Shown piece after piece: positions 2,588 through 56,593 of a stretch of DNA of 64,000 bases. Positions within the stretch are counted from its first letter, which is position 1. Every line of letters begins with the position of its first letter. The notes under the pieces are model-generated. The model made no database searches and had not been told where the DNA came from. It saw only the letters and a list, made by a program, of their open reading frames with translations. The translations under genes and the position numbers were made by a program. Source of the DNA: Dehalococcoidia bacterium (GTDB lineage Bacteria; Chloroflexota; Dehalococcoidia; Bin125); contig OZ253504.1 in NCBI GenBank assembly GCA_965262235.1, positions 2,582,354 through 2,646,353 of the forward strand. The letters run 5' to 3'.

Positions 2588-2785
2588 TCAGTCGCTGACC
2601 TCTTCGAAGGAGAAAGACCGGACGCCGATGCGCTCGCTGGCGTGTTCGAGGGTGATCGCGCAGAGTCGGCCGCCGGAGTCGAACTCAAGCAGCGTTTGCT
2701 CGTCAAGGTCGCGGGATTCCTCAATCGGCTCGGCGCACAGCTCGAGGTAGAGCGTGTCCGTGTCGGCGAAGTAAGTGACCTTCAT
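2588..2785 (-). CDS. DUF2283 domain protein
   Basis: MKVTYFADTDTLYLEL... matches the DUF2283 N-terminus. Start trimmed to the internal Met at 2785 (ORF track extends to 2905). Lies 20 bp downstream of the MTase gene on the same strand. Confidence 0.55.
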   Translation of the reverse strand: MKVTYFADTDTLYLELCAEPIEESRDLDEQTLLEFDSGGRLCAITLEHASERIGVRSFSFEEVSD

Positions 2786-2804
2786 GGCGTGGAATTCGTT
2801 GGCG

Positions 2805-7113: not shown

Positions 7114-7204
7114 GATTATGGTAACCGACGCAGTGCAGGCAGTTCGGCATGGGGTTGTGCTCAGGCGCGAGCACCGTTGGCATCCGCGCTGGGGCGGGGG
7201 CGCG

Positions 7205-11686: not shown

Positions 11687-11704
11687 GCGGACAAACGACG
11701 GGAA

Positions 11705-12508
11705 GTGGACATGACCTACGAACACCTCCGGGTTGAGATCGACGACCAGATCGCGACGATCACGCTGGACCGTCCGGAGAAGCTGAACGCGCTCTCGCGC
11801 GACCTGCACAACGAGATGGTCGCCGCGGCCAATGCCCTGCAGGCCGACGACGACGTGCGTGTGCTGATCGTCACGGGCGCCGGCCGGGGCTTCTGCTCGG
11901 GCGCGGACCTGACCGCGCGCCCATCGGCAAACGGCGTCTCCGAATCGCAGAATGCGCGGCTCGACGAGTTCGGCTGGGTCGGGGCGCAGGCGCTCGCCTT
12001 CGGCCAGATCGACAAGCCGACGATCGCGGCGGTGAACGGGGTCGCGGCGGGCGCGGGGATGAGCCTCGCGTTGGCCTGCGACATCCGCGTGGGCTCGGAG
12101 AAGGCGCGCTTCAAGACCGTGTTCCTCGAGCGCTCGCTCTCGCCCGACGCGGGCATGACGTGGTTCCTGCCGCGGATCGTGGGCTACGCCAAGGCGGCCG
12201 AGCTGGTGCTGACCAGCCGCTTCGTCGAGTCCGACGAGGCGCTGGAGATGGGTCTGCTCAACACCCGCGTGGCTCACGACGAGCTGATCTCGGCGGCGCG
12301 CGCGACTGCCGCGCAGATCGCATTCTGGCCGCCGCTCGCCGCCCGGTCGGCGAAGCGCGTCATGCAGCGCAACCTCAACGCCACGCTCGAAGAGGGCCTG
12401 CGAAACGAGATCACCGCGATCTCTCACGCCACCCGATCGGCGCACGATGTCGCCGAGGCGCAGGCCTCGTTCGTTGAGCGTCGTCAGCCGAACTTCACCG
12501 GCCAGTGA
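11705..12508 (+). CDS. enoyl-CoA hydratase/isomerase (crotonase family)
   Basis: ITLDRPEKLNALS...VLIVTGAGRGFCSGADL crotonase signature; 267 aa. Confidence 0.85.
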   Translation: MDMTYEHLRVEIDDQIATITLDRPEKLNALSRDLHNEMVAAANALQADDDVRVLIVTGAGRGFCSGADLTARPSANGVSESQNARLDEFGWVGAQALAFGQIDKPTIAAVNGVAAGAGMSLALACDIRVGSEKARFKTVFLERSLSPDAGMTWFLPRIVGYAKAAELVLTSRFVESDEALEMGLLNTRVAHDELISAARATAAQIAFWPPLAARSAKRVMQRNLNATLEEGLRNEITAISHATRSAHDVAEAQASFVERRQPNFTGQ

Positions 12509-13005
12509 GCGAGATTCGGATCCGCGAGGCGACGCCGCAGGACGCAGCCGAGATCCTGCGTTTCATTCGTGGGCTGGCCGAGTTCGAGGGTGAGCCGGCT
12601 GAGACGGTCAAAACGACCGAGGACGACATCCGCGCCCACGGCTTCGGGCCGGACCGCCAGTTTGAGACGCTGATCGCGGAGCGCGATGGTTCGCCGGTCG
12701 GCATGGCGCTGTTCTTTCCGCATTACTCGACCTGGGAGGGCCGGCCGGCCCTTTATCTGGAGGACCTGTTCGTCGACGCGGACGCGCGCGGGACGGGGGC
12801 TGGATATGCGCTGATGCAGCGGCTGGCGGAGATCGCCGATGAGCGCGACTGGACCCGGCTCGACCTCGCGGTGCTCGATTGGAACCCGGCGCGGCGCTTC
12901 TACGAGCGGATCGGCATGACCCACGAGTCGGAGTGGCTCACCTACCGCATGGGGCAGGACGCGATCGCCGCGCTGGCGCAGAATGAGGCGCCGCGGGAGG
13001 GCTGA
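12505..13005 (+). CDS. GNAT family N-acetyltransferase
   Basis: 166 aa with RGTGAGYALM GNAT motif; 4-bp ATGA overlap with the upstream gene. Confidence 0.75.
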   Translation: MSEIRIREATPQDAAEILRFIRGLAEFEGEPAETVKTTEDDIRAHGFGPDRQFETLIAERDGSPVGMALFFPHYSTWEGRPALYLEDLFVDADARGTGAGYALMQRLAEIADERDWTRLDLAVLDWNPARRFYERIGMTHESEWLTYRMGQDAIAALAQNEAPREG

Positions 13006-13021
13006 GTCAGGAGGGTTGAGC

Positions 13022-14236
13022 ATGGCCGAGATCACTGTCTACGGCGCGCCGTGGTGCCCGGACTGCCGGCGTGCCAAGCAGTTCCTTGCGGAGCACCGCG
13101 TCGAGTACGACTGGGTCGACATCGACCAGGACGCCGCCGCGCGGGCTCACGTTGAGCAGTTGCAGGGCGGCGGCCGGACGATCCCAACCGTCGTGCTGGG
13201 CGACGGTCGGATGCTGCTTGAGCCGGACAACGACGAGCTGGCGCGCGCGCTTGAGCTGCAGGTGAGGCCGAGCCGCTCGTTCTACGACCTCGCGATCGTC
13301 GGTGGTGGGCCGGCGGGTCTCGCGGCCGCGATCTACGCCGCGCGCGAGGGGATCGACACCGTCGTGGTCGAGCGCTCCGCGCTGGGCGGCCAGGCCGGCG
13401 TCACGAACCGGATCGATAACTACCCCGGATTTCCGGACGGGATCAGTGGGGACGAGCTGGCCAGGCGTTTCATCGAGCAGGCCGAGCGGTTCGGCGTCGA
13501 GCTGCTCTCGGCGGTGGCGACCAGCTCGATCTCGAAGCGCCCCAGCACAGGAGACGTGCAGCTGGGGCTGTCCAGCGGCGACGAGATCGGTGCGCACGCG
13601 GTGATCCTGGCGCCGGGATCGACCTATCGGCGCCTCGATGTCCCCGGAGAGACCGAGCTGATCGGCGCCTCCGTGCATTTCTGCTCAACCTGTGACGGTC
13701 CCTTCTACCGCGGGGCTGGAGAGCTGGCGGTGATCGGCGGCGGGAACTCCGCGCTCGAGGAGGGCTTGTATCTGACCCAGTTCGCCGATCGGGTGCGAAT
13801 CATCCACCGCGGCGACGCGCTGCGCGGATCGCAGGTGTTGCGCGACAAGGTTCGCGACCACGATCGGGTCGACCTCATGCTCGGCACGACGGTCGAGGCG
13901 ATGCGCGGCAACGGGTCGATCTCGGCGCTGACGCTGCGCGACCGAGCAAGCGGCGAGCTCTCGGAGTACGCACCAGATGGGGTGTTCGTGTTCATCGGCC
14001 TGCAGCCCAACACCGACTTCCTGCCGCCCGAGATTGCGGTCGACGAGCGCGGATTCGTCGTGACCAACGCGCAGTTTGAGACCTCGATCGCCGGCGTGTT
14101 CGCAGCGGGCGACAGTCGCGCCGGCTCGACCAAGCAGCTGGGCGCGGCCGTCGGGGAGGGGATCACCGCGCTGATGATGGCGCGGCAGTATCTGCAGGGC
14201 CACCAGCACATTCGCGCGGCCTCGCGGGGGGACTGA
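13022..14236 (+). CDS. trxB: glutaredoxin-like domain fused to thioredoxin-disulfide reductase
   Basis: N-terminal ITVYGAPWCPDCRRAKQFL (Grx/NrdH-like CPDC). Then GGGPAG FAD motif, CSTCDG redox-active disulfide and GGGNSA NADPH motif. Start trimmed to MAEITVYG. Confidence 0.8.
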   Translation: MAEITVYGAPWCPDCRRAKQFLAEHRVEYDWVDIDQDAAARAHVEQLQGGGRTIPTVVLGDGRMLLEPDNDELARALELQVRPSRSFYDLAIVGGGPAGLAAAIYAAREGIDTVVVERSALGGQAGVTNRIDNYPGFPDGISGDELARRFIEQAERFGVELLSAVATSSISKRPSTGDVQLGLSSGDEIGAHAVILAPGSTYRRLDVPGETELIGASVHFCSTCDGPFYRGAGELAVIGGGNSALEEGLYLTQFADRVRIIHRGDALRGSQVLRDKVRDHDRVDLMLGTTVEAMRGNGSISALTLRDRASGELSEYAPDGVFVFIGLQPNTDFLPPEIAVDERGFVVTNAQFETSIAGVFAAGDSRAGSTKQLGAAVGEGITALMMARQYLQGHQHIRAASRGD

Positions 14237-37401: not shown

Positions 37402-39544
37402 CTAATGCAGGTGTCGAGCGTCTTCGTTCATCGAGCGACGGTCGGTCTGTTGCTCGCGATCCTGACGCTTGTGTTGTCGGGTTCGTTGGCGCGGGCGCAG
37501 GATCCTCCGCTGGGGGTGGAGGTGCTGTAGGGCGGTTGAGGTTGGGCTGGGACACCGCTTCGGGCAAGATTGGACGCTGGTCTCGCCGCAACGGCGCATC
37601 CTCGCCGCGGACACGCCCGCCGACGCCTGGCGCGTGAGTTCGGCGGTCGGCGTGCCGATTAGCCCGACGCACGTGCGGATTACGATCGAGAATCGAGGCG
37701 CCTGGACCGACGCGCGCAGTGCGGGCGAATTCGTCGCGCAGATCAACCAGGTGCGTCAGTGCAGCCGCTGCGGCTGGTTGAGGCTGCAGCTGAGCGATGA
37801 TCGGCTCGAGCTCCAGACCTACTCGGACGACTGCACCCACCTGACCGCGATCGGCGCTACGGACATCGCGAATCCCATGAGCGAAGGACGGCAGGAGCTG
37901 CGCGTCGCGGCGCGCCGCCTGGCAGGCGGCGGGATCGAACTGGGACTCCAGCGCCGCGCCGAGTCCGGCTGGGACGCTCTCCAGCAGCCGGAGGATTCGA
38001 TCGTCCCCGCCGATCTCACGGTCGGCGTCTGGTATGCCACATCGCCGATCTCGCTGCCGCCGCCGCCGGCCAGCGTGGAAGCCGACCTGCGTCGCGGCGC
38101 ATCGATCGAGAGGGTCGGAGATGAGCTGCAGGTCAGCGTCGACGGCACGACCTACCGCACCAACTGCGGAGAGCTCCAGCTTCGTTCGTTCCGGACGACA
38201 CTGCTGTTGGACACGCGCGACGAGCAGTGCGATCGGTCGGTCGCGCTCGCCACGGTCTGTGCCTCGGCGGACGTGGGCCGCGACTGCGGCGTCCAACGGA
38301 CCCAGGCGTATCGCTGGGAGACGCGCCAGGAGCGCACCGCGAGGTTCGGGCACATACCGCTCACGGAGACGGAGACGGAGACGGAGACGGAGGACGTTGT
38401 CGACGCGATATTCGCCGACTACTTCGCGTCGGGGCGACGCGCTCCGAGAGTGGTCGCCTGGAGCGGTGATACCGCCCACTTCGACGGCGCCAAGAACCAG
38501 ATCGTTCTCTCCGAGAGCAGTTTTGCGTTCGACACCGTCGCACATGAGATGAGTCACGCGCTGCTGTCGGCTGCGCGGATTCGGAATCCCGGCCACGACG
38601 GCTCGCACACCGCGCTGATCATGGAATTTTGGGGGCGCTACGTACTGCTGATTGATGTTTCTGAGGCGCGAGCTGACGCGCGCGCGAGCGATCTCGATGT
38701 CGCCGAGCGACCGCGTCCGGCCCCGCGAGGCGACGCTGGCATCGTGGCGGTGCGAGACATTCTCTGCGCTGAGTCCGTGACGTCGGACGCGCTCTGCCGC
38801 GCCTTCGATGGGCAGATGTCAGTGCTCGGCGCGCAGGCGACCACTGACCTATACCTCGGCAGTGGGAGGCGCGGTGACGATTTGTCGTGGACGACGGGCG
38901 TTGATTCCCAGACGAGCGGCATGTGGACCTCTATCAGGCAGGACGCTGCAGTCGTGGGGGCGTCGGACGCGCGGGCGCTATTTCGGGTCAGATGCACCAC
39001 CGCAGACGAACTTGATCTCCGTGTTTGGTGGTCCGGCGTTCCCGACCTCAATGGTGAGGTGACCTACCAAATCGGAGAACTTCAGGCCGTCGACGCTCGC
39101 TGGCTCACCGGCAGCGGCAGCGGGCCGGGCGGACCGTGGCTGTATCACCAGGCGCCGGGTCCTATGGGCATTGCGCGCGCGTTCAGCTGGGCCGCCCGTT
39201 CAGGCGGAGAGCTGAGCTTCAGCTTCGAGCTCTACGGGCGGATTTATTCAACCACGTTCGATCTCGATGCGATCTTCAACACACCGGCGCAACCGAATCT
39301 CGCGCAGTGTGGGTCGCTCGCGGAGCCGCCGGCGCTCGGTGAACCGGTCACGGGGTTTTGTCGGTACGGCCCGCATTTCTGGTGGAACACGCAGCTGAAC
39401 TCCGAGACGGGCGCGCTGCTCACCGCTGTGGTCCGCGAGACGGCAGTCGAGGGAGCGGATGCGGCGCTCGCGCGCCTCCGGGTCGTATGTGTGTACGACG
39501 ACACGCTGGCTGTGACCTGTGGTGGCGTGGCGTTCCGGAACTGA
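37402..39544 (+). pseudogene. secreted HExxH-motif protein gene with an apparent frameshift after the signal peptide
   Basis: 37402-37530 encodes a signal peptide (MQVSSVFVHRATVGLLLAILTLVLSGSLARAQDPPLGVEVL*) ending in a stop. The 691-aa ORF (37469-39544) continues in the +1 frame. A G5 run at 37512-37516 is the likely indel site. Body contains FAFDTVAHEMSHALL (HExxH). Confidence 0.45.
38363..38392. repeat. (ACGGAG)x5 hexanucleotide microsatellite encoding (TE)5
   Basis: Five perfect tandem ACGGAG copies inside the HExxH ORF. Confidence 0.9.
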
Positions 39545-39813
39545 GCCCCGATGTGAGCTTGCGGATCGGTGAGCTTCCGCAGCAGGACGTGACCTCGCTG
39601 ACGAGCATTGGCAGATGGGGGGACAACGACTGGAGCTTCCACGGGGCGCCGGACTCTCGCTCGCTCGTGCAGGCGCTCGGTTGGGCCGCCGGCGCCGGCG
39701 CCAACTTCAGCGTCAGCTTCGTGAGCGACGGGGCGACCTACAGCGCCAGCTTCGACCGCGACGGGCTCTTCGAGACACCCGTCCAGCCCAACCTCGCGCG
39801 CTGTGGGCATTAG
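39515..39813 (+). pseudogene. frameshifted second copy of the about 95-aa C-terminal domain of the HExxH protein
   Basis: Alternate frame reads DLWWRGVPELSPDVSLRIGEL...FSVSFVSDGATYSASFDRDGLFETPVQPNLARCGH, paralogous to RVWWSGVPDLNGEVTYQIGEL...FSFELYGRIYSTTFDLDAIFNTPAQPNLAQCGS upstream. A 1-nt deletion relative to copy 1 lies just before TGGTGG. Confidence 0.4.
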
Positions 39814-39843
39814 ACTGCCCGCCAACGACTGAAGGAGACCGCC

Positions 39844-41091
39844 ATGCATTTGATGTACTTCACCGAGCAACCGATGTCGGCCTATGACGAGGCGTCGGCT
39901 GAGGAGGGCGTGACGGCGCTGCTGTTCCCCAACTCCAACTTCGACTCGGAGGCGGGCAGCCGCCTCTACCGCGACCGCCTGACCGAATACCAGTTCGCCG
40001 AGGAGGTCGGGGTCGACGGGATCATGCTGAACGAGCATCACAACGCGCCGTTCTGCATGCAGGCGAAGTGCAACATCTGGGCTGCCGTGCTCGCCGGCGC
40101 GACCGAACGGGTGAAGATCGTGCTGCTCGGCAACCCGCTGCCGCTGGCCGACAACCCGATCCGGCTCGCCGAAGAGCTCGCGATGATCGACATGATCTCG
40201 CAGGGCCGGCTCGTCTCGGGCTTCGTCCGCGGCGGCGGTTCCGAGCAACTCGCGACCGGCGTCAACCCGGCCTACAACCGCGAACGCTTCGAGGAGGCCC
40301 ACGACCTGATCGTCGAGGCCTGGACGCGGCCCGGTCCGTTCCGCTGGGAGGGCAACCACTACCAGCACCGCGTGGTCAATCCCTGGGCGACGCCGATGCA
40401 GCAGCCGCATCCGCGGATCTGGATTCCCGGTGTGCTCTCGCGCGAGACGGTGGTCTGGGCGGCCAAGCACCGCTACCCCTACATCGCGCTGAACACCACG
40501 ATCGAGGCGACCAAGCGGATCTGGCAGACCTACGACGAATCGGCGCACGAGGTTGGCTACGACCCGGGCCCCGAGAACCGCGGGTACCTGCTGCGCGTGC
40601 ACGTCGCGGACACGACCGAAAAGGCGATCGAGAACGCGTCGCAGTTCATGTGGATGCAGGGTGAGTTCACCGGCCTCGCGCATCCGGTCTGGAGCAACCC
40701 GGCCGGCTACGCCTCGCCGCGCAACCGCGAGGCGTTGGTCGAGGTGATGAACGGGCGCCGCCCGCCGCCGCGCGCGAGCACCTTCGAGAACCAGATCGAA
40801 AACATGCAGATCATCGCCGGCACGCCCGACGAGTGCATCGCCAAGCTGCGGATCATCCTCGAAGCGACGCGGCCCGGCATCCTCGCGCTGTGGGGCAACG
40901 ACGGCCGCGTGACGCATGAGGACTCGATGCGCTGCATCGAGCTGCTCGGCACCGAAGTCATGCCCGCCGTCCGCGAAATCGGCGCCGAGCTGGACCTCGA
41001 CGGGCCGTTCGACTCCGAGCCGCCGGTCAGCATCCGCTACGACGAAGCCGCTCAGGCGCGAGTCGCGGCGGGCGCAGCGGCCGGCGACTAA
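39844..41091 (+). CDS. LLM-class flavin-dependent oxidoreductase (luciferase-like monooxygenase)
   Basis: MHLMYFTEQP start, TIM-barrel LLM pattern, 415 aa. Confidence 0.85.
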   Translation: MHLMYFTEQPMSAYDEASAEEGVTALLFPNSNFDSEAGSRLYRDRLTEYQFAEEVGVDGIMLNEHHNAPFCMQAKCNIWAAVLAGATERVKIVLLGNPLPLADNPIRLAEELAMIDMISQGRLVSGFVRGGGSEQLATGVNPAYNRERFEEAHDLIVEAWTRPGPFRWEGNHYQHRVVNPWATPMQQPHPRIWIPGVLSRETVVWAAKHRYPYIALNTTIEATKRIWQTYDESAHEVGYDPGPENRGYLLRVHVADTTEKAIENASQFMWMQGEFTGLAHPVWSNPAGYASPRNREALVEVMNGRRPPPRASTFENQIENMQIIAGTPDECIAKLRIILEATRPGILALWGNDGRVTHEDSMRCIELLGTEVMPAVREIGAELDLDGPFDSEPPVSIRYDEAAQARVAAGAAAGD

Positions 41092-41136
41092 CCGACCAAC
41101 ACGCTCGCCAACACGTTCGAAGGCACTGAGGAGATC

Positions 41137-41913
41137 ATGGCAACCATCGACATTCTGCTGCACGGCTACTCGTTCGGGACCGACTCGGGCACGCCGGCGT
41201 TTTGCAGCGTCATCCTGGTCGAGTCCGAGGGGCGTCGGGTGCTGGTCGACACGGCGCACGTCGGCCGTCGGGTCCAGCTCCAGGAGGCGCTCGCTGCGCG
41301 CGGCCTGACCGCCGACGACATCGACGTGATCCTGATGACGCACGCGCACTGGGACCACGTGCAGAACTTCGACGCGTTCCCGAACACGCCGATGGCGATC
41401 CACCCGTGGGAGCGCAAGTACGCCAGCGATCCGCACGTCAACGACTGGGCCACGCCCAAGTGGACCGGCGCGGCGATCGAGACGCACACGCTGCAGGAAG
41501 TCAGCGAGGGCGACGAGTTGGCCAAGGGCGTCACAGTGATCGATCTGCCGGGTCACTCGCCCGGCAGCATCGGCCTGCTGGTCGAGACCGAGGCGGGTCT
41601 TGCGGGCCTGACCGGCGATGCGATGCACACCGCGGCGGCCGGGATCGCGGGGCGCAGCCCGCTGGTCTTCTACAACGAGACGCAGGCCAACGACAGCATC
41701 GCCAAGATCGTCTCCGCAGCCGAGTTGCTCTACCCGGGCCACGACCAGCCGTTCCGGATCGTCGATGGCGCGCCGGTCTACATCGAGCCGTTCAAGCTGA
41801 CGCTCTCGGGCGTACAGCCACAGATGGAGGGGCTCACCTTCGCGCCGCCGCCGGCGGGTCCGATCGTGCCCTGGATCATGCCGGGCATCGGGGATCAGCC
41901 GACGTACGACTAA
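41137..41913 (+). CDS. MBL-fold metallo-hydrolase
   Basis: THAHWDH metal-binding motif and DLPGHSPG. Confidence 0.8.
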   Translation: MATIDILLHGYSFGTDSGTPAFCSVILVESEGRRVLVDTAHVGRRVQLQEALAARGLTADDIDVILMTHAHWDHVQNFDAFPNTPMAIHPWERKYASDPHVNDWATPKWTGAAIETHTLQEVSEGDELAKGVTVIDLPGHSPGSIGLLVETEAGLAGLTGDAMHTAAAGIAGRSPLVFYNETQANDSIAKIVSAAELLYPGHDQPFRIVDGAPVYIEPFKLTLSGVQPQMEGLTFAPPPAGPIVPWIMPGIGDQPTYD

Positions 41914-41926
41914 GCTCCGCCAGCGG

Positions 41927-42811
41927 GTGCGCATCGCGCGAATCGGCGGCCGTCGGGTCGCGTATGAAACGTATGGCGACCCGCGCGGCCAACCCGTCCT
42001 GATCATTCACGGCGCCTGGGGCGGGCCGTCGTCCAGCCTGTGGAACGGGCCGCGCCTGCGTTGGTCAGCGCCCACCGATGGTCTGCGCCTGATCTGGTAC
42101 GACCGCCGGTGCGCCGGTCTCTCGCAGTACGACACGCAGCCGTTCGCACTCGAGGACCTGGCATACGATGCCGTCGAGGTTCTCGACTACCTGCAGATTG
42201 AACGGGCCGCGGTCATCGCGACTTCCGCAGGTGGTCCGATCGGCATGAGATTGGCGCTCGGTCATCCGGACCGGGTCTCAGCCCTGGTGCTGCTCAACAC
42301 GGGCGCGGCGTTGATGTCGTTGAATCCAACGGGAGTCAATCTCGACGACCCGTTCGTCGCTGATCGGCTCGAGACGGTCGCCAGGCGCATCGGGCTGTTG
42401 AAACTCATGGAATCCAAGGGCGTCGAGGCGGCGATTCAGCAATCCGAAGAGGAGTGGCGAACGCCGCCGGAGCCGGAGAGCGCGGATCCAGAGCTGGCTG
42501 CGTTTCGAGCGAATCGTCTGCGTGCCCTGAGCCGGTTGTCGCAAAGCGAGCTGGTGCGGCTGGGGCGAGGAGCCTTGCTGAACATGCAGGCGCAGCGGGG
42601 CATTGACCTTGCTGATCGACTGCACGGGATCAACTGTCCGACTCTGATCGTCCACGGAGATGCCGACACGACCGTGCCCATCGACTTCGGACGCGCCACG
42701 GCTGAGCGGATCTCAGGAGCCGAACTCGCCATTCTCCATGCCGCTGGCCACGGTCTGATCGCTCATGCCCAAGCGCAGTCCATGCTGGCAAAGTGGTTGT
42801 TGGGAGTCTAG
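41927..42811 (+). CDS. alpha/beta hydrolase
   Basis: VLIIHGAWGG, ATSAGG nucleophile elbow, C-terminal HGDADTTVP...AGH. Confidence 0.75.
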   Translation: MRIARIGGRRVAYETYGDPRGQPVLIIHGAWGGPSSSLWNGPRLRWSAPTDGLRLIWYDRRCAGLSQYDTQPFALEDLAYDAVEVLDYLQIERAAVIATSAGGPIGMRLALGHPDRVSALVLLNTGAALMSLNPTGVNLDDPFVADRLETVARRIGLLKLMESKGVEAAIQQSEEEWRTPPEPESADPELAAFRANRLRALSRLSQSELVRLGRGALLNMQAQRGIDLADRLHGINCPTLIVHGDADTTVPIDFGRATAERISGAELAILHAAGHGLIAHAQAQSMLAKWLLGV

Positions 42812-42820
42812 AATCGGGAC

Positions 42821-43039
42821 ATGACCACGACAGAGCCCAGTCCGGCAACCTCGCAGATCAGCGAACGCGCCCGCCAGCGCGGAGTCGAGTTGTGGAGCGG
42901 CGAAGAACTGGTCGACATGCTGGACAAGATCTGCGAAGGCATGACTCAGGAAGAGCGCGAAGCGCTGGCCGACGAATTGGACCCCAAATGGCGCGACGAT
43001 GGCGGGCCTGAGTGGCGAACGGCGGACGATTTCAGTTGA
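42821..43039 (+). CDS. small hypothetical protein, possible antitoxin of the downstream PIN gene
   Basis: 72-aa acidic ORF immediately upstream of and overlapping the PIN gene. Confidence 0.35.
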   Translation: MTTTEPSPATSQISERARQRGVELWSGEELVDMLDKICEGMTQEEREALADELDPKWRDDGGPEWRTADDFS

Positions 43040-43481
43040 TACCAATGTGCTCAGCGCCATAGTGGGGCGGAGCGATGTCGGGGGCGCCTACCGAGATTTG
43101 TTGCGAAACTTCAGCGCGGTGGTGACGTATTTTGTGCGCGCTGAAATACAGGTGATCGACTGGCGACCAGCGGCATGGGACATCCTTGCAGTCTTTCTCA
43201 AAGATGATAATGCGTTTGACCCGCCAGGCTATGATGTGATCGAAGAGTATGTGCAGCTCAAACGGACAGCCATTGCGCTTGGCTTGCGCTATGGCGCAGA
43301 GCGGGAAGATCTCTGGATGCTGGCCCAGACTCGTAGCGTACAGCTGCCGGTGATGACTCACGATCGCAACGCCGCTCGCGTAGCACGGGCGGTTGGAATG
43401 CCAGTGGTGACCGCGTTATCCGACATCGAGGCGGACTACGCCCGTGATCGCGGGAGATTGGCGAGAACTCGATCGCGCTAA
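42999..43481 (+). CDS. PIN-domain ribonuclease (VapC-like toxin)
   Basis: ISVDTNVLSAIV N-terminus and EDLWMLAQTRSVQLPVMTHDRNAARVA C-terminus. Paralogous to the PIN ORF at 555-1043. Confidence 0.6.
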   Translation: MAGLSGERRTISVDTNVLSAIVGRSDVGGAYRDLLRNFSAVVTYFVRAEIQVIDWRPAAWDILAVFLKDDNAFDPPGYDVIEEYVQLKRTAIALGLRYGAEREDLWMLAQTRSVQLPVMTHDRNAARVARAVGMPVVTALSDIEADYARDRGRLARTRSR

Positions 43482-47350: not shown

Positions 47351-48793
47351 TCACGCACCGTCTCCTTGTGGGAGTTCCGGCGCGGTCAGCTGGCGTACCT
47401 CCAGCTCGACGGAGGCGGGGCCTTCGATGCGGCGCGACTCCTCGACGGCGCCCAGCTCCTCGATCCGGCGTGCCTGGACCAGCACGCGCGACTGAAACGA
47501 GCCGACGCTGCTGTTGTAGGCGCGCACCGCCGATGTCAGCGCCTTGCCGACGTTGCCCACATGGTCGGAGTACGTCGCCAGACGCGTGTAGAGCTCGCGC
47601 GACGTGTCGGCGATCTCCTGCGCGTTCTGCTGGATGTCTTCCTGCTGCCAGGCCACGCCGATGGTCCTGAGCAGTGCGATCAGCAGCCCCGGACTTGCGA
47701 TCAGCACCTTGTGCTGGGTCCACGCGTCCTCCCAGATGGTCGGCTGCGCGACCATCGCCGCGTCCAGAATCGTCTCCGTCGGCACGAACAGCACGACGAA
47801 GTCGGGCGACTTGCCATCGATCGCATCGGCGTAGTTCTTGCTGCCCAGGGCGCGCGCGTGGTTCATCAAGGCTGCCGCGTGCTGGCCCAACGCCGCCCGC
47901 TGTTCGTCGTCGTCGTGAGACTCGTTCGCGCGCAGATAGGCCTCCAACGGCGTCTTCGCGTCGACGGGGACGCTCAACCCGCGCGGTAGCTTGATCACCG
48001 CGTCGGGACGGATCGCGCCGTCCTCGGTGACGGTGTGCTCCTGCCGCGAGTAGTCGACGTGCTCACGCATTCCGGCGACCTCCAGCACGCGCTCGAGTGT
48101 GAGCTCGCCCCAGCGTCCCCGCTGCTGCGGTGAGCTCAAGGCCTGGCGCAGGCCGGTCGTGGTCGCGCGAAGCTCGCCGATCTGCTTGCCGGCGCTGCCG
48201 ATCAGCTCGACCACCATGCCGTAGGCGTTCTCGCGCTTCTCCTCGATCTCGCCGACGCGCTTCTGCAGCTTCTCCAGCGTTTCGCCGACCGGCTTGACCA
48301 GGTTGTCGACGGCCTGCTGGCGTTTCTCGAGGTCCGTGTCGGCGAGTTCGCGGTCGCGCTTGAACTGATCCTCGGCCTGTTTGCGGAACCCCTCGTTGCT
48401 CAGCTGCAACGCATCGAGCGCCAGGCCCTTGAAGCGCTGTTCGAGATCCGCTCGGTACTGCTCAAGTTCCTCGCGGCGCGCGCGATGCGACTGCTCCAGC
48501 GCGGCGACGGCCTCCCGAGAGGTCGCAAGCTCGCGGCGCAGTCGCTGGATCTCCGTCTGCGCTTCAATCTCCTGCTCGCGGGCTCGCCGCAGTTGGTCCG
48601 AGCGCTCTTCGAGCGAGGTCTGGGCTGCGGCCAGATCGATCTGCGCGCTGGTCAGCCCGTTGGCAGTCTCCGCCTGCGAAATGCGCAATTCGTCGACCTG
48701 CTCGCGTGCGAGCCCTGCGCTGCGTTGGGCCCACAGCCAGCCGACGAATCCGCCCAGCGCCACGATCGCCAGCACAACGACTGCGATCTCCAT
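47351..48793 (-). CDS. rmuC: DNA recombination protein RmuC
   Basis: N-terminal TM helix, long coiled coil, and C-terminal RmuC region (SPDFVVLFVPTE...LIASPGLLIALL). Confidence 0.8.
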   Translation of the reverse strand: MEIAVVVLAIVALGGFVGWLWAQRSAGLAREQVDELRISQAETANGLTSAQIDLAAAQTSLEERSDQLRRAREQEIEAQTEIQRLRRELATSREAVAALEQSHRARREELEQYRADLEQRFKGLALDALQLSNEGFRKQAEDQFKRDRELADTDLEKRQQAVDNLVKPVGETLEKLQKRVGEIEEKRENAYGMVVELIGSAGKQIGELRATTTGLRQALSSPQQRGRWGELTLERVLEVAGMREHVDYSRQEHTVTEDGAIRPDAVIKLPRGLSVPVDAKTPLEAYLRANESHDDDEQRAALGQHAAALMNHARALGSKNYADAIDGKSPDFVVLFVPTETILDAAMVAQPTIWEDAWTQHKVLIASPGLLIALLRTIGVAWQQEDIQQNAQEIADTSRELYTRLATYSDHVGNVGKALTSAVRAYNSSVGSFQSRVLVQARRIEELGAVEESRRIEGPASVELEVRQLTAPELPQGDGA

Positions 48794-49778: not shown

Positions 49779-51368
49779 ATGGAAGTCCCGCTGCTCGTCA
49801 CCGATTTCCTGCGACGCGCGACGAAGCTGTACGCCGATTCGGAGGCAGTGGTCGATGGCGATCAACGCCTCAGCTGGCGCGAGTTCGGTGAGCGCGTCAA
49901 CCAGCAGGCCAACGCGTTGCTCGAGATGGGGATCGGGAAGGGCGATCGCGTGGCGATCATCGCGCCAAACAGCCACCAGTTCCTTGAGACGTTCTACGCC
50001 ACGGCCTCGATCGGCGCGATCATCGTGCCGGTCAACTACCGCCTGATCCCGTCCGACTTCGAGTACATCCTGCAGCACTCGACCGCGCGGGTTGTGCTCG
50101 TCGACGCCGAGTTCACTCACCTGGTCGACCTGATCCGCAGCGCGGCGCCGTCGGTCGAGCACTACATCGCGGTCCCCTACGGCGACGCGCCGATCGCGCC
50201 GGGCTGGACCGACTACGAGGTCTGGATCGGCGGCCAGCCGACCTCTGCGCCGCCGGACCCGGGCCTCGAAGAGACCGACCTGCTCAGCATCAACTACACC
50301 TCCGGCACGACCGCGCGGCCCAAGGGTGTGATGATCACCCACCGCAACGCCTACATCAACACCTACAACTTCATCGCCCATCTGCGCATTCAGCAGAACG
50401 ACGCGGAGCTGTGGACCCTGCCGATGTTCCACGCCAACGGCTGGGGCGGCGTCTATGCGATCACCGCGATGGGCGGCAAACACGTGGTGCTGCGCGCGCC
50501 GGAGGCCGACGACATCTACCGCCTGATCCAGGACGAGCGCTGCACGTTTGCCTGCATGGCGCCTGCGGTGCTCGCGCGGATCCTCGAGTTCGAGCGCAAG
50601 GACGAGTTCGAGATCACGACGCGCCCGCGTTTCACCGTCGCGGGCGCGCCGCCGCCGCAGGCGTTCATCGAGCGGCTCGAAAACGAACTCGGCTGGGAGT
50701 TCATGCAGATCTATGGGCTGACCGAGACCTCGCCGATCCTCACCGTCGCCCAGCCCAAGCCGCACGTCGAAGTCGGCTCGCCCGCCTACTTCCGCAACAA
50801 GGTCCGCGCCGGGCATGAAGTCATCGGCGTCGATGTCAAGATCGTCGATGACGTCGGTGATGAGGTCGAGTGGGACGACGAATCGATCGGCGAGATCGTC
50901 GCCCGATCCAATGTCGTCATGCGCGGCTACTGGGAGCAGCAGGCCGAGACCGACAAGGTGATCGTCGACGGCTGGTTCCACACCGGCGACATGGCCACGG
51001 TCAACTCGGAGGGCTACATCAACATCGTTGACCGCGCGAAGGACGTGATCATCTCGGGTGGCGAGAACATCTCCTCAATCGAGGTTGAAGACGTGCTCTA
51101 CCAGCACCCCGGGGTGCTGGAGGCCGCCGTGATCGGCGTTCCCTCGGAGCAGTGGGGCGAGACGCCGCTGGCGCTGATCGTGCCGCGCGAAGGACAGGAA
51201 GTCACGCGGGACGAGATCGTCGCGCACTGCCGAGCCCAGATGGCCAGCTTCAAAATCCCCCGCCGGGTCGAGTTCGTCGAAGAGCTGCCCCGTACCGCCA
51301 CGGGGAAACTGAAGAAGTTCGAGCTGCGCGAAACCTACTGGGAGGGCGTCGAGAAGCGGGTGAATTGA
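49779..51368 (+). CDS. AMP-dependent acyl-CoA synthetase/ligase
   Basis: INYTSGTTARPKGVMITHRN AMP-binding motif and C-terminal GKLKK; 529 aa. Confidence 0.85.
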   Translation: MEVPLLVTDFLRRATKLYADSEAVVDGDQRLSWREFGERVNQQANALLEMGIGKGDRVAIIAPNSHQFLETFYATASIGAIIVPVNYRLIPSDFEYILQHSTARVVLVDAEFTHLVDLIRSAAPSVEHYIAVPYGDAPIAPGWTDYEVWIGGQPTSAPPDPGLEETDLLSINYTSGTTARPKGVMITHRNAYINTYNFIAHLRIQQNDAELWTLPMFHANGWGGVYAITAMGGKHVVLRAPEADDIYRLIQDERCTFACMAPAVLARILEFERKDEFEITTRPRFTVAGAPPPQAFIERLENELGWEFMQIYGLTETSPILTVAQPKPHVEVGSPAYFRNKVRAGHEVIGVDVKIVDDVGDEVEWDDESIGEIVARSNVVMRGYWEQQAETDKVIVDGWFHTGDMATVNSEGYINIVDRAKDVIISGGENISSIEVEDVLYQHPGVLEAAVIGVPSEQWGETPLALIVPREGQEVTRDEIVAHCRAQMASFKIPRRVEFVEELPRTATGKLKKFELRETYWEGVEKRVN

Positions 51369-51442
51369 GCGGGATGTCGATGCCGGCGGTGCGCGCAATG
51401 GCGAATCCCCGGGGACGCGTGCCGCTACTGTAGGTCTCGCAG

Positions 51443-52636
51443 ATGAGCGGGGGGACGATGGCGATCACGCCTCGAATCGATGTCGATCCAGGGTTGATCG
51501 AGTGGGCGTGCGTACGGTCTCGCGTGCAGCGAGCAGATCTGGAGCGGAAGTTCAGGGGACTCCCGAGATGGCTTGCGGGAGAGGAGTCTCCAACTTCGGC
51601 GCAGCTCCAGTCGTTCGCGAAGGCAACGTACACGCCGTTTGGCTATTTCTTCAGTCCAGAGCCCCCAGCAGACGCTCTGCCTGTCAGCGATTTTCGGGTC
51701 CGAACGGGCGGGCTACTGGATCGACCTTCACCACATTTGCTGGACACGATCTACAACTGTCAGGATCGGCAGGCGTGGTATCGCGACTATCTGCAGGCGA
51801 GTGGAGAGCCGCCTGTTGACTGGATTGGATCGCAGGTCCTCGAGGGCGATCCGACGACGGCGGCGAGACGATTTGCTCGCGAAGTAGGTTTGGGCGTGGA
51901 GTCCCGATCTGGTGCGTCAACCTGGGAGGATGCGCTGAGGGATGCCCGACGGATGTTGGAAGCCGTGGGCGTATTGGTGATGGTGAACGGTGTTGTGGGA
52001 AACAATACCCGCAGGCGGCTCGATCCCGACGAGTTCATCGGATTCGCGCTGGCAGACGATCTGGCGCCCTTGATATTCATCAACAACGCCGACTACAAGG
52101 CGTCGCAGATGTTCTCGGTGGCTCACGAGATCGGGCATCTACTCTTGGGCGAGTCTGGAGTCTCCGACGATTCAGTCGGCGTAGAGCAGGCGCCAGACAA
52201 CGAGAGGTGGTGTGATCACTTCGCGGCAGAACTATTGGTTCCCGAAGCAGATCTGCAAGCGCAGGATCTCGACTTCAGGGAAGTGGCCCGAGATGATCTA
52301 CAGAGCTTAGCGCGCCGATACAAGGTCAGTAAGGTCGTGGTGCTGCGTCGCCTGCGAACGGTGGGTCTCATCGGTATTCGTCGGTATTCTGACCTGTTCG
52401 CTGAAGAGCGACAAGAATTCGCGGCGCGGCGAGCAGCACGCGATGGTGACACCGGCCGCGGAGGGAACTTCTACAACACATTCTTCCAGAGAACCGGACG
52501 CCGATTTGTCTGGGCCGTGGTAGCCAGCACCTTGGGCGGGCAGACGACATACGACGAAATGTCGAGATTACTTGGAATTAGCACGTTCGAGACTTTCGAC
52601 AAGATCGCGGCGGACTTTGGAATGGCGCGCCCATGA
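51443..52636 (+). CDS. XRE-like N-terminal region fused to ImmA/IrrE-family zinc metallopeptidase
   Basis: FSVAHEIGHLLLGE (HExxH of COG2856 ImmA/IrrE). 397 aa; 4-bp overlap with the downstream DUF4411 gene. Confidence 0.7.
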   Translation: MSGGTMAITPRIDVDPGLIEWACVRSRVQRADLERKFRGLPRWLAGEESPTSAQLQSFAKATYTPFGYFFSPEPPADALPVSDFRVRTGGLLDRPSPHLLDTIYNCQDRQAWYRDYLQASGEPPVDWIGSQVLEGDPTTAARRFAREVGLGVESRSGASTWEDALRDARRMLEAVGVLVMVNGVVGNNTRRRLDPDEFIGFALADDLAPLIFINNADYKASQMFSVAHEIGHLLLGESGVSDDSVGVEQAPDNERWCDHFAAELLVPEADLQAQDLDFREVARDDLQSLARRYKVSKVVVLRRLRTVGLIGIRRYSDLFAEERQEFAARRAARDGDTGRGGNFYNTFFQRTGRRFVWAVVASTLGGQTTYDEMSRLLGISTFETFDKIAADFGMARP

Positions 52637-53130
52637 CCGATCTCATCGACGCAAACGTCTTGATCGAGGCTTACCGAAGATACTATAGCATGGACATTTG
52701 TCCTGGGTTTTGGGACTGGCTCGGTGGTGCCTTGGCTCTCGGCGATGTCGTTCTGATTCCGCAAGTCGCGCGTGAAGTGACGCCGCGTTCTCAGATCCTA
52801 ATCAACTGGCTCCGTAATGATGCAACCATCCAGGAGCCGAGGAATCTCGCGCCAATCGATCACTCTCGTCGGCAGGTGACGGCCAGGGTCAATCAGTTGG
52901 GGTGTACTCCCTATTCTGTGAACAAGTTTATGCTTGGCGGCGATTTCCACTTGGCTGCTTTCGCAGATGCTGGGGGTCACAGGATTGTCACACTTGAGAC
53001 AAAAGAGGATCCTAACAAGTCGAGCAGAAGACTCAAGCTTCCAGACCTCTGTGACTCCATGGGCATCGAGTGGGCAAGGCCGTTTCAGATGCTTAAGGAC
53101 CACGGAGTGCGGTTCGAGTGGTCTGGATAG
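52633..53130 (+). CDS. DUF4411 (PIN-like) family protein
   Basis: MTDLIDANVLIEAYRRYYSMDICPGFWDWL matches the DUF4411 N-terminal pattern. Distinctly lower GC than the surroundings. Confidence 0.6.
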   Translation: MTDLIDANVLIEAYRRYYSMDICPGFWDWLGGALALGDVVLIPQVAREVTPRSQILINWLRNDATIQEPRNLAPIDHSRRQVTARVNQLGCTPYSVNKFMLGGDFHLAAFADAGGHRIVTLETKEDPNKSSRRLKLPDLCDSMGIEWARPFQMLKDHGVRFEWSG

Positions 53131-53309
53131 CTTCGGTGCCCGACCGTCAGTGGGTGGACTCTGCTGTCCGCCTTTATGACGCCGCTGGGTCGCCTAGTCT
53201 TGGGGGCATTCACGTCCCCTGTGCCCCAGCGCACGGTACGGCGAAGCTCCTGTGCGAACTCCCCCGCTCTTGACTGTAGATTCACTACTCCAGCTACGCT
53301 CAATAGCAG

Positions 53310-54239
53310 CTAGCCCAAGACGCCGCTGAGGAAGCTGTTGACGCGGTTTGTGCCGTCCATGCCGGCGGGGGTGGGGAAGTTGTCGAAGCCGTGGGGGGCC
53401 TCGGGGAACACGTGGAGGTCTGTCTCGTGCCCGGCCGCCTCCCAACGGGCCGCCATGAAGAGGGTGTCATCGAGCAGCGGATCGAGCGTGCCCACGATGA
53501 AGATCGCCGGGGGCATGTCGTGCAGACGCGCCAGCAGCGGCGTCACGTCGGGGTCGTCGCGGTCCGCGGGGTCCACATAGTGGTCGATGAACCACTCCAT
53601 GATCGGGCTCGAGAGGATCAGGTTGCGCTCGCCCCAGAGCCGGGCTGAGGGCGAATGCCGTAGGTCGTAGACGCCGTAGATCAGCGCCGCGCCGAGGAAG
53701 CCGGTGTAGCCGTGGTTGTCGCGCATCCGCAGCAGCGTGGTTGCCGAGAGGTGCCCGCCGGCCGACTCGCCGCCGATCGTGAACTTGTCGGCGCCGAACT
53801 CCGACTGACCGTTCTCGACCAGCCAGACAGCGGCCGCTTCGCAGTCGTCGTTGCTGGCCGGCCAGCGATGCTCGGGCGCCAGTCGGTAGCCGACCGAGAC
53901 CACGGCCTGCTGGGTCGCCTGGGCGCGCTCCCAGAGCCGCTCGTCGGCGCCGTCGTGCGAGCCGATCACCCAGCCGCCGCCGTGGATGTGCAGGTAGACG
54001 CCGTTCACGACCTCCGGCACGAAGACGCGGATCGGAATGTCGCCGGCCGGCCCGGCAATCGTGCGCTCCTGCGCGATGTCGTCAAGGCGCGGCGGCGGCG
54101 GCCCAAACGGCCCACCCTCGGCCAGCGCGTCGCGCACCTCCTGCGCGCCCATCTCGTTCCACGGCTTGGCATCGGCCGAGAGCGTTTCGATCATCTGGTT
54201 CAGCGCCACCGTCTGCGGATCTGCTCGCATCACACTCAC
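53310..54239 (-). CDS. alpha/beta hydrolase, esterase/lipase (HSL family)
   Basis: HGGGW oxyanion motif and GESAGG nucleophile elbow. Confidence 0.8.
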   Translation of the reverse strand: MSVMRADPQTVALNQMIETLSADAKPWNEMGAQEVRDALAEGGPFGPPPPRLDDIAQERTIAGPAGDIPIRVFVPEVVNGVYLHIHGGGWVIGSHDGADERLWERAQATQQAVVSVGYRLAPEHRWPASNDDCEAAAVWLVENGQSEFGADKFTIGGESAGGHLSATTLLRMRDNHGYTGFLGAALIYGVYDLRHSPSARLWGERNLILSSPIMEWFIDHYVDPADRDDPDVTPLLARLHDMPPAIFIVGTLDPLLDDTLFMAARWEAAGHETDLHVFPEAPHGFDNFPTPAGMDGTNRVNSFLSGVLG

Positions 54240-54866: not shown

Positions 54867-56018
54867 ATGATCATCACCCGCCTGGTGCTGGAGAACTGGC
54901 GCAACTTCCGCGAAGTCGACATCGCGCTCCAGCAGCGTACGTTTATCGTCGGCCCGAACGCATCAGGCAAGTCGAACCTGCTCGACGCCGTGCGGTTTCT
55001 CCGCGACGTGTCGAACGACGGTCTGCAGCGAGCCCTCGACCAACGCGGTGGCATCTCCAAGATCCGCTGCTTGGCCGGACGCCAGGCACCAGGCGTCACG
55101 CTCGACGTCAGCATCGGCGCCTCTGACGATCAGTCGCCGCAGTGGCGTTACCGGCTGGGAATCCGCCGGGAACCGACCGGGCGTCACCGAACGCTCGTCA
55201 CCACCGAGCAGGTTTGGAATGCGGAGGGCGAACTGCTGATCGACCGCCCGAGCGACCGTGAGCGCGACGATCCTGAGCTGCTAACACAGACGGCGATCGA
55301 GCAGGTGAGCGAGAACCGCGGGTTTCGCGACATCGCAGCATTCTTCAAATCGGTGAGCTACCTGCATCTGGTTCCGCAGATGATTCGCTACGGGGATGAG
55401 TCGCGCCAGGCGTCGTCGGGCAATGATCCCTTCGGGCGCGGCTTTCTGGAGCGCATCGCCGAGACACCGGAGCGGACGCGTGAGCGTCGCCTGCGCAAGA
55501 TCGGTGCACAGCTACATGCAATCCAGCCGCTGTTCGATGGGACCCTGGTCGTTGCCAGGGACGAGCGCGGCCAGCCGCACCTCGAGGCGCGTTTCGACCA
55601 CTGGCGCCCGAAGGCAGGCAAGCAGCGCGAGGATCAGTTTTCGGATGGCACGCTGCGCCTGATCGGCCTGCTCTGGGCGCTCATGGAAGGCTCCGGCCCG
55701 CTGTTGCTGGAAGAGCCGGAGCTGTCGCTACAGAACGACCTGGTCAGTCAGCTGGCCGCGATGTTCGCTCGTGTCGGCAAACGCGAGCGCCAGGTGCTCG
55801 TCACGACGCACTCGCCCGATCTCCTGGACGATGAGGGGATCATGCCCGAGGAGGTCTTGCTCATCGAGCCGTCGAAGAACGGTTCGGTGATCACGTCGGG
55901 CGCGGAAGATCTCTCGGCGGTTGCGATCTCCGAACATGGCGGGCATGTGGGCGACATGCTGCTCGCGATGGCCGTCAGGCGTGGCGGCGCTCAGCTGCCC
56001 CTTCGCTCTGCGCAATGA
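54867..56018 (+). CDS. ABC/OLD-family AAA ATPase (AAA_15/AAA_21-like)
   Basis: Walker A GPNASGKSNLLDA, signature-like FSDGTLRLIGLL, Walker B LLLEEPE, H-loop VTTHSP; 383 aa. Confidence 0.75.
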   Translation: MIITRLVLENWRNFREVDIALQQRTFIVGPNASGKSNLLDAVRFLRDVSNDGLQRALDQRGGISKIRCLAGRQAPGVTLDVSIGASDDQSPQWRYRLGIRREPTGRHRTLVTTEQVWNAEGELLIDRPSDRERDDPELLTQTAIEQVSENRGFRDIAAFFKSVSYLHLVPQMIRYGDESRQASSGNDPFGRGFLERIAETPERTRERRLRKIGAQLHAIQPLFDGTLVVARDERGQPHLEARFDHWRPKAGKQREDQFSDGTLRLIGLLWALMEGSGPLLLEEPELSLQNDLVSQLAAMFARVGKRERQVLVTTHSPDLLDDEGIMPEEVLLIEPSKNGSVITSGAEDLSAVAISEHGGHVGDMLLAMAVRRGGAQLPLRSAQ

Positions 56019-56593
56019 CGGTTCGCGTCGCGGTTGAAGGGCGCCTCGATCTCGTGGTTGTCCAGCGACTGCTGTCAGACCATGATCTCGTCGCGGCGCC
56101 GGTTCGACGGGCCCGTGGCCGTGATGCCATCTTGGACAGGCTGATGGGATACAACGTCGCGGCCGAACGCGAGCCGTGGTTGGTTCTGGTCGACCTTGAT
56201 CGCGATGTGTGCGCCGCTGAGGCTGTGCAGCTGTGGCTTCCTCATCCTGCAGCACGAATGACCTTTCGAATCGCAGTCCGTGCCGTGGAGGCATGGCTGT
56301 TGGCGGATCGCGGAATCGCGAGATTCCTCCGAGTGCAACCGCGCTTCCTCCCTGAAGACCCAGATGCGCTCGGCGATCCGAAGCGTCGCCTTGTACAGAT
56401 TGTGAGCGAGGAGTGTCGGTCTTCATCGGTCCGCTCAGCGATCATGCGTTCCGACGGCAGCACTCGTGCGGGGCAGCGTTACAACGAATTTCTTGCGGAG
56501 TTCGTGTCGAACGATTGGGATTGGCGCGGCGCTGCCCGGCGGTCCGACTCGCTTCGACGCGCCGTTGAGGCGATCGCTCGGATCGGCGGTTGA
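56015..56593 (+). CDS. small TOPRIM-like protein (DUF4276-like) coupled to the ATPase
   Basis: RVAVEGRLDLVVVQRLL (conserved Glu), LVLVDLDRD (DxD) and VRAVEAWLLAD fit a minimal TOPRIM/DUF4276 pattern. ATGA start-stop overlap with the ATPase gene. Confidence 0.5.
   Translation: MTVRVAVEGRLDLVVVQRLLSDHDLVAAPVRRARGRDAILDRLMGYNVAAEREPWLVLVDLDRDVCAAEAVQLWLPHPAARMTFRIAVRAVEAWLLADRGIARFLRVQPRFLPEDPDALGDPKRRLVQIVSEECRSSSVRSAIMRSDGSTRAGQRYNEFLAEFVSNDWDWRGAARRSDSLRRAVEAIARIGG

Follow-up and report, generated by a model that had tools for sequence, protein, structure and literature searches.

A probable VapBC52-type toxin-antitoxin cassette with a peptidase-containing antitoxin in a variable chromosomal slot of a Dehalococcoidia bacterium

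The window analysed here is a stretch of 64,000 nucleotides of contig OZ253504.1 (assembly GCA_965262235.1, positions 2,582,354 to 2,646,353 of the forward strand) from a Dehalococcoidia bacterium. It contains a two-gene cassette, in which a protein combining helix-turn-helix (HTH) elements with an ImmA/IrrE-type M78 peptidase is encoded immediately upstream of a DUF4411 protein with the fold of a PIN nuclease. The cassette is probably a type II toxin-antitoxin (TA) module, or abortive-infection-type module, of the VapBC52 kind (probability about 0.8), with the first gene encoding the antitoxin and the second the toxin. Both proteins are homologous to the corresponding components of VapBC52 of Mycobacterium tuberculosis. 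Judged from its sequence, the cassette would be a remote member of a widespread and already described class, the activation chemistry of which may differ from that of VapBC52. The cassette comprises the following elements.

51443..52636, + strand: putative antitoxin/sensor gene, HTH and M78 peptidase protein of 397 amino acids (aa), VapB52-like, three-domain
52633..53130, + strand: putative toxin gene, DUF4411 PIN-like nuclease of 165 aa, VapC52-like
52633..52636, + strand: ATGA stop/start overlap of 4 bp, read directly from the sequence
51369..51457, + strand: upstream intergenic region, presumed location of the promoter and operator
53131..53309, no strand assigned: intergenic spacer at the right edge of the variable slot, bounded by the converging DUF4411 and esterase genes, without a terminator-like site

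The cassette and its homology to VapBC52

The initial annotation of this DNA, made from the letters alone, had described two genes overlapping by 4 bp, an ImmA/IrrE protein of COG2856 and a DUF4411 protein. Two co-directional open reading frames (ORFs) are present at these positions, and the peptides quoted from them, FSVAHEIGHLLLGE and MTDLIDANVLIEAYRRYYSMDICPGFWDWL, are both found in the translations. The ATGA overlap implies translational coupling of antitoxin and toxin, and an abutting or overlapping gene order is common to every homologous locus examined. Both family assignments were borne out by Pfam searches. Peptidase_M78 (PF06114) matches residues 174-304 of the first protein, the HExxH motif of which is intact (E 2.9e-18, 66.3 bits against a cut-off of 22), and DUF4411 (PF14367) matches the second protein over its full profile (positions 2-159 of 159, E 7.2e-31, 107.6 bits against a cut-off of 23.5). 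The two proteins are also matched by the PHROGs families phrog_2439 (E 1.8e-41) and phrog_11126 (E 9.6e-24), respectively. In NCBIfam, the cassette has a single match, to the spr1629 antitoxin family, which with 33.6 bits stays below the cut-off of 335.

The first gene more likely starts at the ATG at 51458, judging from the sequence, and its product would then have 392 aa. This start is preferred because it is preceded by a GGGGGGA run at 51449-51455, 3-9 nt upstream, and because the database copy P0021 (100% identical) and all close homologues begin at the same position. A terminator scan of 51250-53400 returned a single terminator-like hairpin, which lies inside the ImmA gene and is below shuffle expectation.

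The link to VapBC52 was established by sequence and profile searches, alignments built from the homologues serving as profiles. In phmmer searches the ImmA protein matches chain 9vzy_A of the PDB, named "HTH cro/C1-type domain-containing protein" (E 1e-16). For the DUF4411 protein the matches are 9vzy_D (E 3.6e-4) and 9VZZ (E 1.1e-3), each of which carries the name "DUF4411 family protein". The antitoxin family profile matches 9vzy_A from the N-terminal domain to the start of the C-terminal domain (E 5.8e-35), and the toxin family profile matches 9vzy_D over its full length (E 4.3e-18). Entries 9VZY and 9VZZ are VapB52/VapC52 (Rv2515c/Rv2514c) of M. tuberculosis, characterised in a study dated June 2026 (Singh et al., Nucleic Acids Res. 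2026, PMC13273310). The statement of the initial annotation that the function of such pairs is still unproven is therefore out of date, as crystal structures and biochemistry are available for the homologous VapBC52.

According to that study (PMC13273310), VapC52 is a PIN ribonuclease (RNase) that cleaves tRNA and is inactivated by the D6A substitution, and VapB52 is an unusually large antitoxin of three domains. Its five-helix HTH-like N-terminal domain grips the outer face of the toxin dimer and is needed for toxin binding. The middle domain consists of an IrrE-type peptidase and an HTH motif and holds zinc on H216, H220 and E245, with C229 as a "cysteine-switch". The four-helix C-terminal domain covers the active site of VapC52, and the stoichiometry of VapB52 to VapC52 is 1:2. 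Single-stranded DNA (ssDNA) induces HExxH-dependent self-cleavage of VapB52 near a conserved FR motif, by which the N-terminal domain is removed. The window pair has the same gene order and coupling as VapBC52, and its antitoxin has the same three-domain plan, with the HExxH motif and downstream Glu, the DFR/'FR' linker and the GGN(F/W)Y motif. The hosts differ, being a member of the Chloroflexota (Dehalococcoidia) for the window pair and an actinobacterium for VapBC52.

Domain plan and conserved residues of the two proteins

The functional elements recognised in the two proteins are listed below.

51470..51667, + strand: N-terminal five-helix HTH-like domain of the antitoxin, approximately residues 10-75, predicted to bind the toxin and possibly DNA
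51689..51697, + strand: DFR motif (D83, F84, R85), part of the flexible linker that joins the N-terminal domain to the middle domain, predicted self-cleavage region
52124..52204, + strand: zinc site H228-E229-x-x-H232 and E254, aligned to VapB52 H216/H220/E245
52460..52633, + strand: C-terminal four-helix domain, starting at GGNFY (residues 340-344), predicted plug of the toxin active site
52648, 52774, 52942 and 52996, + strand: toxin acidic residues D6, E48, D104 and E122, respectively, four-acid PIN site

The AlphaFold2 (AF2) model of the antitoxin has a pLDDT confidence score of 89.5 and is divided into a five-helix N-terminal domain, a middle domain with the peptidase and an HTH, and a four-helix C-terminal domain. 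The N-terminal helices comprise residues 16-26, 30-36, 40-45, 52-61 and 66-70; this domain resembles C.Csp231I and the DNA-binding domain of ImmR in Foldseek comparisons, and it aligns to the N-terminal domain of VapB52. The middle domain is a strand-rich peptidase core of four to five strands plus helices, with the HTH internal to it. The C-terminal helices comprise residues 343-351, 353-364, 370-377 and 382-391.

ImmA homologues number more than 3,100. Conservation was examined in 42 antitoxin homologues from several phyla, 43-71% identical to the query. The zinc-site residues H228, E229, H232 and E254 are invariant in this set, as are D83 and R85 of the DFR motif, which aligns with the 'FR motif' of VapB52 (F75/R76), and G340, G341, F343 and Y344 at the start of the C-terminal domain, where VapB52 has an aligned GGNWY. 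The linker around the DFR motif is flexible (mean pLDDT 58 for residues 81-90), and so is the loop after HExxH, which is present in the window protein (mean pLDDT 62 for residues 241-250). The position of the VapB52 cysteine switch, C229, is filled by S241 (52163-52165) and is Ser or Asp in 42/42 sequences of the subfamily. Two cysteines, C106 and C257, are invariant, the former being without a counterpart in VapB52.

The Foldseek neighbours of the antitoxin model are CapP (7T5T), IrrE (3DTE/3DTI), PprI with ssDNA (8SLN) and PrpR (6CZ6), the same neighbours as published for VapB52. The best structural match (7T5T, 3DTE, 8SLN) is the IrrE-family zinc peptidase with an adjoining HTH, as found in IrrE/PprI, which acts with DdrO, and in CapP, which with CapH regulates CBASS, a signalling system against phage that is based on cyclic oligonucleotides. 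CapP and IrrE/PprI peptidases are switched on by ssDNA or DNA damage. These enzymes cleave a separate repressor and so de-repress transcription, whereas in the window protein, as in VapB52, the predicted substrate and toxin-binding domains would be fused to the peptidase and the output would be the release of a nuclease. The window antitoxin also differs in having no GAF domain.

That CapP and IrrE are the top structural matches speaks for another explanation, as does the M78 domain, which the protein has in common with ICEBs1 ImmA, IrrE/PprI and CapP, enzymes that each cleave an HTH repressor that is a separate protein. On this view the first protein would be an ImmA-type anti-repressor or an IrrE/PprI-type stress regulator that cleaves a separate repressor of a mobile element or DNA-damage regulon, with DUF4411 as an unrelated passenger. 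This is highly improbable. No integrase, other mobile-element gene or tRNA was found in the window, and no separate small XRE repressor near the pair. The protein has an HTH-like N-terminal domain and a DFR linker of its own, the features that make VapB52 its own substrate. DUF4411 is translationally coupled to the first gene and co-inherited with it in every locus examined, and the crystal structure 9VZY holds both homologous proteins in one complex.

The AF2 model of the DUF4411 protein (pLDDT 91.8) matches VapC11, VapC2, FitB, VapC15, PAE2754 and HARP RNase P in Foldseek, with a probability of 1.00 and template modelling (TM) scores of 0.54-0.64 against VapC/PIN structures. The DUF4411 family comprises 7,198 clusters at 50% identity (E<=1e-3), and conservation was examined in 77 representatives of 50%-identity clusters. 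D6, D104, E122, W27 and P137 are invariant in them and all are present in the window protein; E48 (in at least 90% of the representatives), T120 and C140 are near-invariant and likewise present. The acidic residues are those of VapC52, window D6 being aligned to VapC52 D6. The structural matches and the conserved D6, E48, D104 and E122 agree with the earlier prediction of a PIN-like nuclease.

With canonical VapBC modules, the toxins of which belong to the PIN family PF01850, the cassette shares a PIN-fold toxin with a four-acid site (Foldseek matches VapC11, VapC2, VapC15 and FitB), an antitoxin gene in first position and overlapping genes. It differs from them in that the antitoxin has about 390 aa and an enzymatic domain instead of being a DNA-binding protein of 8-13 kDa, and in that the toxin belongs to PF14367 and not to PF01850. 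The stoichiometry of the VapBC52 reference structure is 1:2, compared with 2:2 or 4:4 in canonical complexes. The window contains a further pair, a 72-aa ORF at 42821..43039 (+) overlapping a gene for a 160-aa PIN protein at 42999..43481 (+; PF01850, E 3e-6), in a low-GC patch (42.7-44 kb, about 59% GC); this pair is probably of the canonical VapBC type.

RosmerTA (RmrT/RmrA) resembles the cassette in having an antitoxin with an N-terminal HTH and a zinc peptidase (ImmA/M78) and a swappable toxin partner. The peptidase core of the first protein is matched by the PADLOC models of both capP and RmrA. Fifteen RmrA models match (best E 2.9e-17), only over residues ~200-322 of 397 and not over the whole architecture, and capP scores slightly better. 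Characterised RmrT toxins have an unknown fold or are membrane-depolarising and are not PIN nucleases. The pair was not assigned to RosmerTA because no RmrT model matches the DUF4411 toxin, and PADLOC would not call it RosmerTA. Similar pairs have been noted before. Matelska et al. (2017, PMC5499597) described computationally DUF4411.1 downstream of an HTH-DUF955 (COG2856) fusion and predicted a three-component-like TA module. Millman et al. (2022) cite the ImmA-DUF4411 configuration in defining RosmerTA. In the NetFlax network the architecture falls into the ImmA/Rosmer zone, and antitoxins of node D25 pair with PIN-like toxins (Ernits et al. 2023).

Genomic context and exchange of the cassette

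In all 12 of the other loci inspected (L001-L004, L085, L086 and L088-L093), among them every one from other phyla-level lineages, the gene that directly follows the ImmA gene of this subfamily encodes DUF4411. In two cases the pair is located inside a type I restriction-modification (R-M) operon, with hsdS on one side and hsdR on the other; one lies within a region rich in TA modules and insertion sequences, and another adjoins NucS, a cytosine methylase (Dcm) and Vsr. Plasmids carry DUF4411 homologues as well: 26 such records were found, of which 15 are conjugative, and some of the homologues are annotated beside ImmA/IrrE or XRE genes. The pair thus recurs in defence and mobile contexts, as had been stated from the letters. 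In two loci the toxin has decayed and an intact antitoxin is kept, the pattern expected of a toxic gene.

L093, 6173..6346: decayed toxin beside the intact antitoxin; an in-frame internal deletion joins residues 1-26 to 143-165, with 57 aa left
L086, 7152..7286: decayed toxin beside the intact antitoxin; truncated to a 44-aa stub

In the window the cassette is inserted between two genes that are outside the module.

49779..51368, + strand: left flank, AMP-binding acyl-CoA ligase (Pfam AMP-binding), 81-96% identical in relatives with or without the pair
53310..54239, - strand: right flank, esterase (Pfam Abhydrolase_3), 80-97% identical in relatives

When the neighbouring AMP-binding ligase was used to scan genomes, one for each species, the window was placed in a high-GC lineage of Dehalococcoidia (Chloroflexota). 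The slot between the ligase and the esterase is a defence hotspot with accessory cargo. It holds the ImmA-DUF4411 pair in at least six related genomes, namely the window, L001, L002/L003, L004, L092 and L093. The closest relative, L005, the flanks of which are 94-97% identical, has no pair and carries in its place, on the opposite strand, an unrelated gene for a 521-aa protein (11656..13221, -), which is matched by the PADLOC models HEC-07 (E 3.6e-34) and NsnC (E 1.7e-25) and by no Pfam family. In L008 and L009 the slot is occupied by a DUF559 endonuclease-like gene, and in L006 and L007 it is empty, with 15 bp between the flanking genes. From the stop codon of the AMP-binding gene up to that of the esterase gene, the intergenic sequence is unrelated among the relatives.

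The relationships among the pair's alleles differ from those among the hosts and flanks. The flanks of L001 and L002 are 94-95% identical, whereas their pairs are only 59% and 54% identical; those of L092 and L093 are 91% identical, and their ImmA proteins 59%. The best match of the window pair (69-70%) is in L001, which belongs to the other host clade and has flanks only 81-83% identical. This incongruence indicates that the alleles have been exchanged horizontally, and the simplest reading is that a pool of diverged alleles circulates among these bacteria, probably by way of homologous recombination in the conserved flanks. The pair is not a one-off recent insertion, as it occupies the same slot in at least six related genomes and undergoes allelic turnover there. 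The RmuC gene of the window (47351..48793, -) diverges far more than the genes around it, with only 35-53% identity between genomes in which the adjacent AMP-binding ligase is 81-83% identical, and replacement may affect it as well.

The base composition of the cassette is consistent with this history. The GC content is 59.2% in the ImmA gene and 53.8% in the DUF4411 gene, compared with 67.0% for the window, and the GC content at third codon positions (GC3) is 0.66 and 0.62, compared with 0.87-0.91 in the neighbouring genes. With 57.7% GC the cassette is the lowest of all 1688-bp stretches in the 64 kb (mean 67.0%, standard deviation 3.0), about three standard deviations below the mean. The low GC reported initially is thus real, but the value of about 50% given for the DUF4411 gene was too low. 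Two other patches, at 2701-4500 and 6551-7300, have less than 60% GC.

A low GC content could also be intrinsic, for instance owing to low expression or relaxed codon bias, in which case the pair would have been resident for long and inherited vertically. Its presence at the identical position in six related genomes fits such a history, as does the lowered GC3 in every pair-bearing genome (0.55-0.78 compared with 0.79-0.93 in the flanks), and the closest homologues (at least 58% identity) all come from the same lineage and slot. Vertical inheritance is nevertheless quite unlikely. The pair is missing from the closest relative and from the 15-bp slots, and the similarity of its alleles contradicts the phylogeny of the flanks, down to the best match of the window pair in the other host clade. 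The neighbourhood comparison shows that the pair is not part of the core genome, in line with the horizontal acquisition proposed from composition.

A palindrome resembling repetitive extragenic palindromic (REP) elements, GCTCCCCC-N-GGGGGAGC, frequently with CGCGACA in front of it, is found repeatedly in the ligase/esterase slot of several relatives, at the following positions.

L001, approximately 8640-8670: REP-like element
L002, approximately 8565-8590: REP-like element
L005, approximately 13500-13520: REP-like element
L008, approximately 12045-12075: REP-like element
L009, approximately 12375-12410 and 11590-11650: REP-like elements

The element may mark or promote the turnover of the hotspot. 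As a cause of the insertion in the window it was ruled out, since there is no copy in the window. The short direct and inverted repeats in 51250-53400 look like chance occurrences, and neither a target-site duplication nor a repeat resembling an attachment (att) site was found around the cassette. A tRNA-linked island and an RNA antitoxin are likewise unsupported, because neither a tRNA nor an Rfam family was found in the window.

The cassette has a defence context: HEC-07 occupies the same slot in L005, and in the window the HEC-01A/B pair lies 1.7 kb downstream. HEC-01A (54867..56018, +; PADLOC E 1e-134, Pfam AAA_21/ABC-type ATPase) overlaps HEC-01B (56015..56593, +; PADLOC E 4.9e-53), described as TOPRIM-like by Payne et al., by 4 bp. 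The HEC-01 pair has a variable slot of its own, bounded by DinB/MST and by a second esterase; nothing is present there in L005, and different cargo occupies it in L004, L006, L007, L092 and L093. Elsewhere in its genome, L002 has a HEC-01 pair with 36-38% identity. When HEC-01 was originally assayed, it did not protect against phage. A third variable point is nearby, where a DNA methyltransferase gene (N6_N4_Mtase) lies between the esterase and DinB in L092 (7758..9467) and L093 (7407..9116). Elsewhere in the window, a 920-aa ORF at 39244..42006 (-) has no match in Pfam-A or PADLOC.

Predicted mode of action and its implications

A mode of action can be proposed by analogy with VapBC52. The DUF4411 protein would be a metal-dependent RNase of PIN fold, toxic through cleavage of tRNA. 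The antitoxin would neutralise it by clamping the toxin dimer between its N-terminal HTH-like domain and its C-terminal four-helix domain and blocking the active site, presumably with the 1:2 stoichiometry of the M. tuberculosis complex. The central IrrE/ImmA zinc peptidase would be a built-in sensor of the antitoxin. A stress signal would activate it, and from what is known of VapB52, CapP and IrrE/PprI this signal is most likely ssDNA that is produced when DNA is damaged or a phage replicates. The active peptidase would then cut its own linker near the DFR motif (F84-R85), the N-terminal domain would be lost, and the freed PIN toxin would cleave tRNA and arrest translation and growth, which may abort phage infection.

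Several points weigh against the assignment to the VapBC52 kind or against parts of this scheme. With pairwise identities of 26% and 19%, the resemblance to VapB52 and VapC52 is remote, and the substrate, trigger and stoichiometry may therefore differ. The C229 cysteine switch, the fourth zinc ligand of VapB52 and CapP, which was looked for as the mark of auto-inhibition, is Ser241 in the window protein. No sigma-70-like site was found in a scan of 51250-53400 and no convincing palindrome upstream of the genes, so that the promoter and operator were not located. No PADLOC model matches the DUF4411 protein at E<=0.01, nor did a search of the phage collection yield any DUF4411 homologue at E<=1e-5, despite the matches to PHROG families. 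Finally, phage D29 infection of M. smegmatis was countered only upon over-expression of VapC52 and not upon co-expression of toxin and antitoxin (PMC13273310), which leaves defence by the intact system unproven even for VapBC52.

The D29 result, in which intact VapBC52 with both genes expressed gave no protection, and the toxin without a PADLOC model also favour the view that the cassette is a purely selfish addiction module, which stabilises itself and its slot, with neither phage defence nor a peptidase-mediated trigger. The decayed toxins beside kept antitoxins in L093 and L086 fit ordinary TA decay, and plasmids, including the conjugative ones on which homologues occur, are where addiction has its classic role. 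Pure addiction is nonetheless rather unlikely. The zinc-site residues, like the DFR linker and the 390-aa architecture as a whole, do not vary from phylum to phylum, which argues that the peptidase is functional and not vestigial. The contexts examined are consistently defence islands, be it a type I R-M operon or a region where HEC-07 or HEC-01 occupies this slot or one next to it. RosmerTA, with apparently the same type of antitoxin, does defend against phage (Millman et al. 2022; NetFlax, Ernits et al. 2023).

A tentative and somewhat doubtful suggestion concerns the subfamily in which Cys is replaced (42/42 sequences, several phyla). Without the switch ligand of VapB52 and CapP, and with the invariant C106 and C257, its members might be inactivated or triggered in another way than by ssDNA-driven release of a cysteine; together with the swapping of alleles, this could make the cassette a diversifying phage sensor in Dehalococcoidia. 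The existence of a widespread non-mycobacterial subfamily that lacks the cysteine-switch residue means that the published activation model may not generalise.

The cassette alone matters little, since such a pair had already been predicted in 2017, its family has thousands of clusters, and structures and a mechanism are known for a homologue. Its annotation can, however, be shifted from "DUF4411 / ImmA, function unknown" to "VapBC52-like PIN toxin / self-cleaving peptidase antitoxin". We know of no experimentally studied immunity in Dehalococcoidia. The slot between the ligase and the esterase is a clean natural defence hotspot in these uncultivated bacteria, occupied by the pair, by HEC-07, by DUF559 or by nothing, in which both the exchange of alleles and the decay of toxins are visible.

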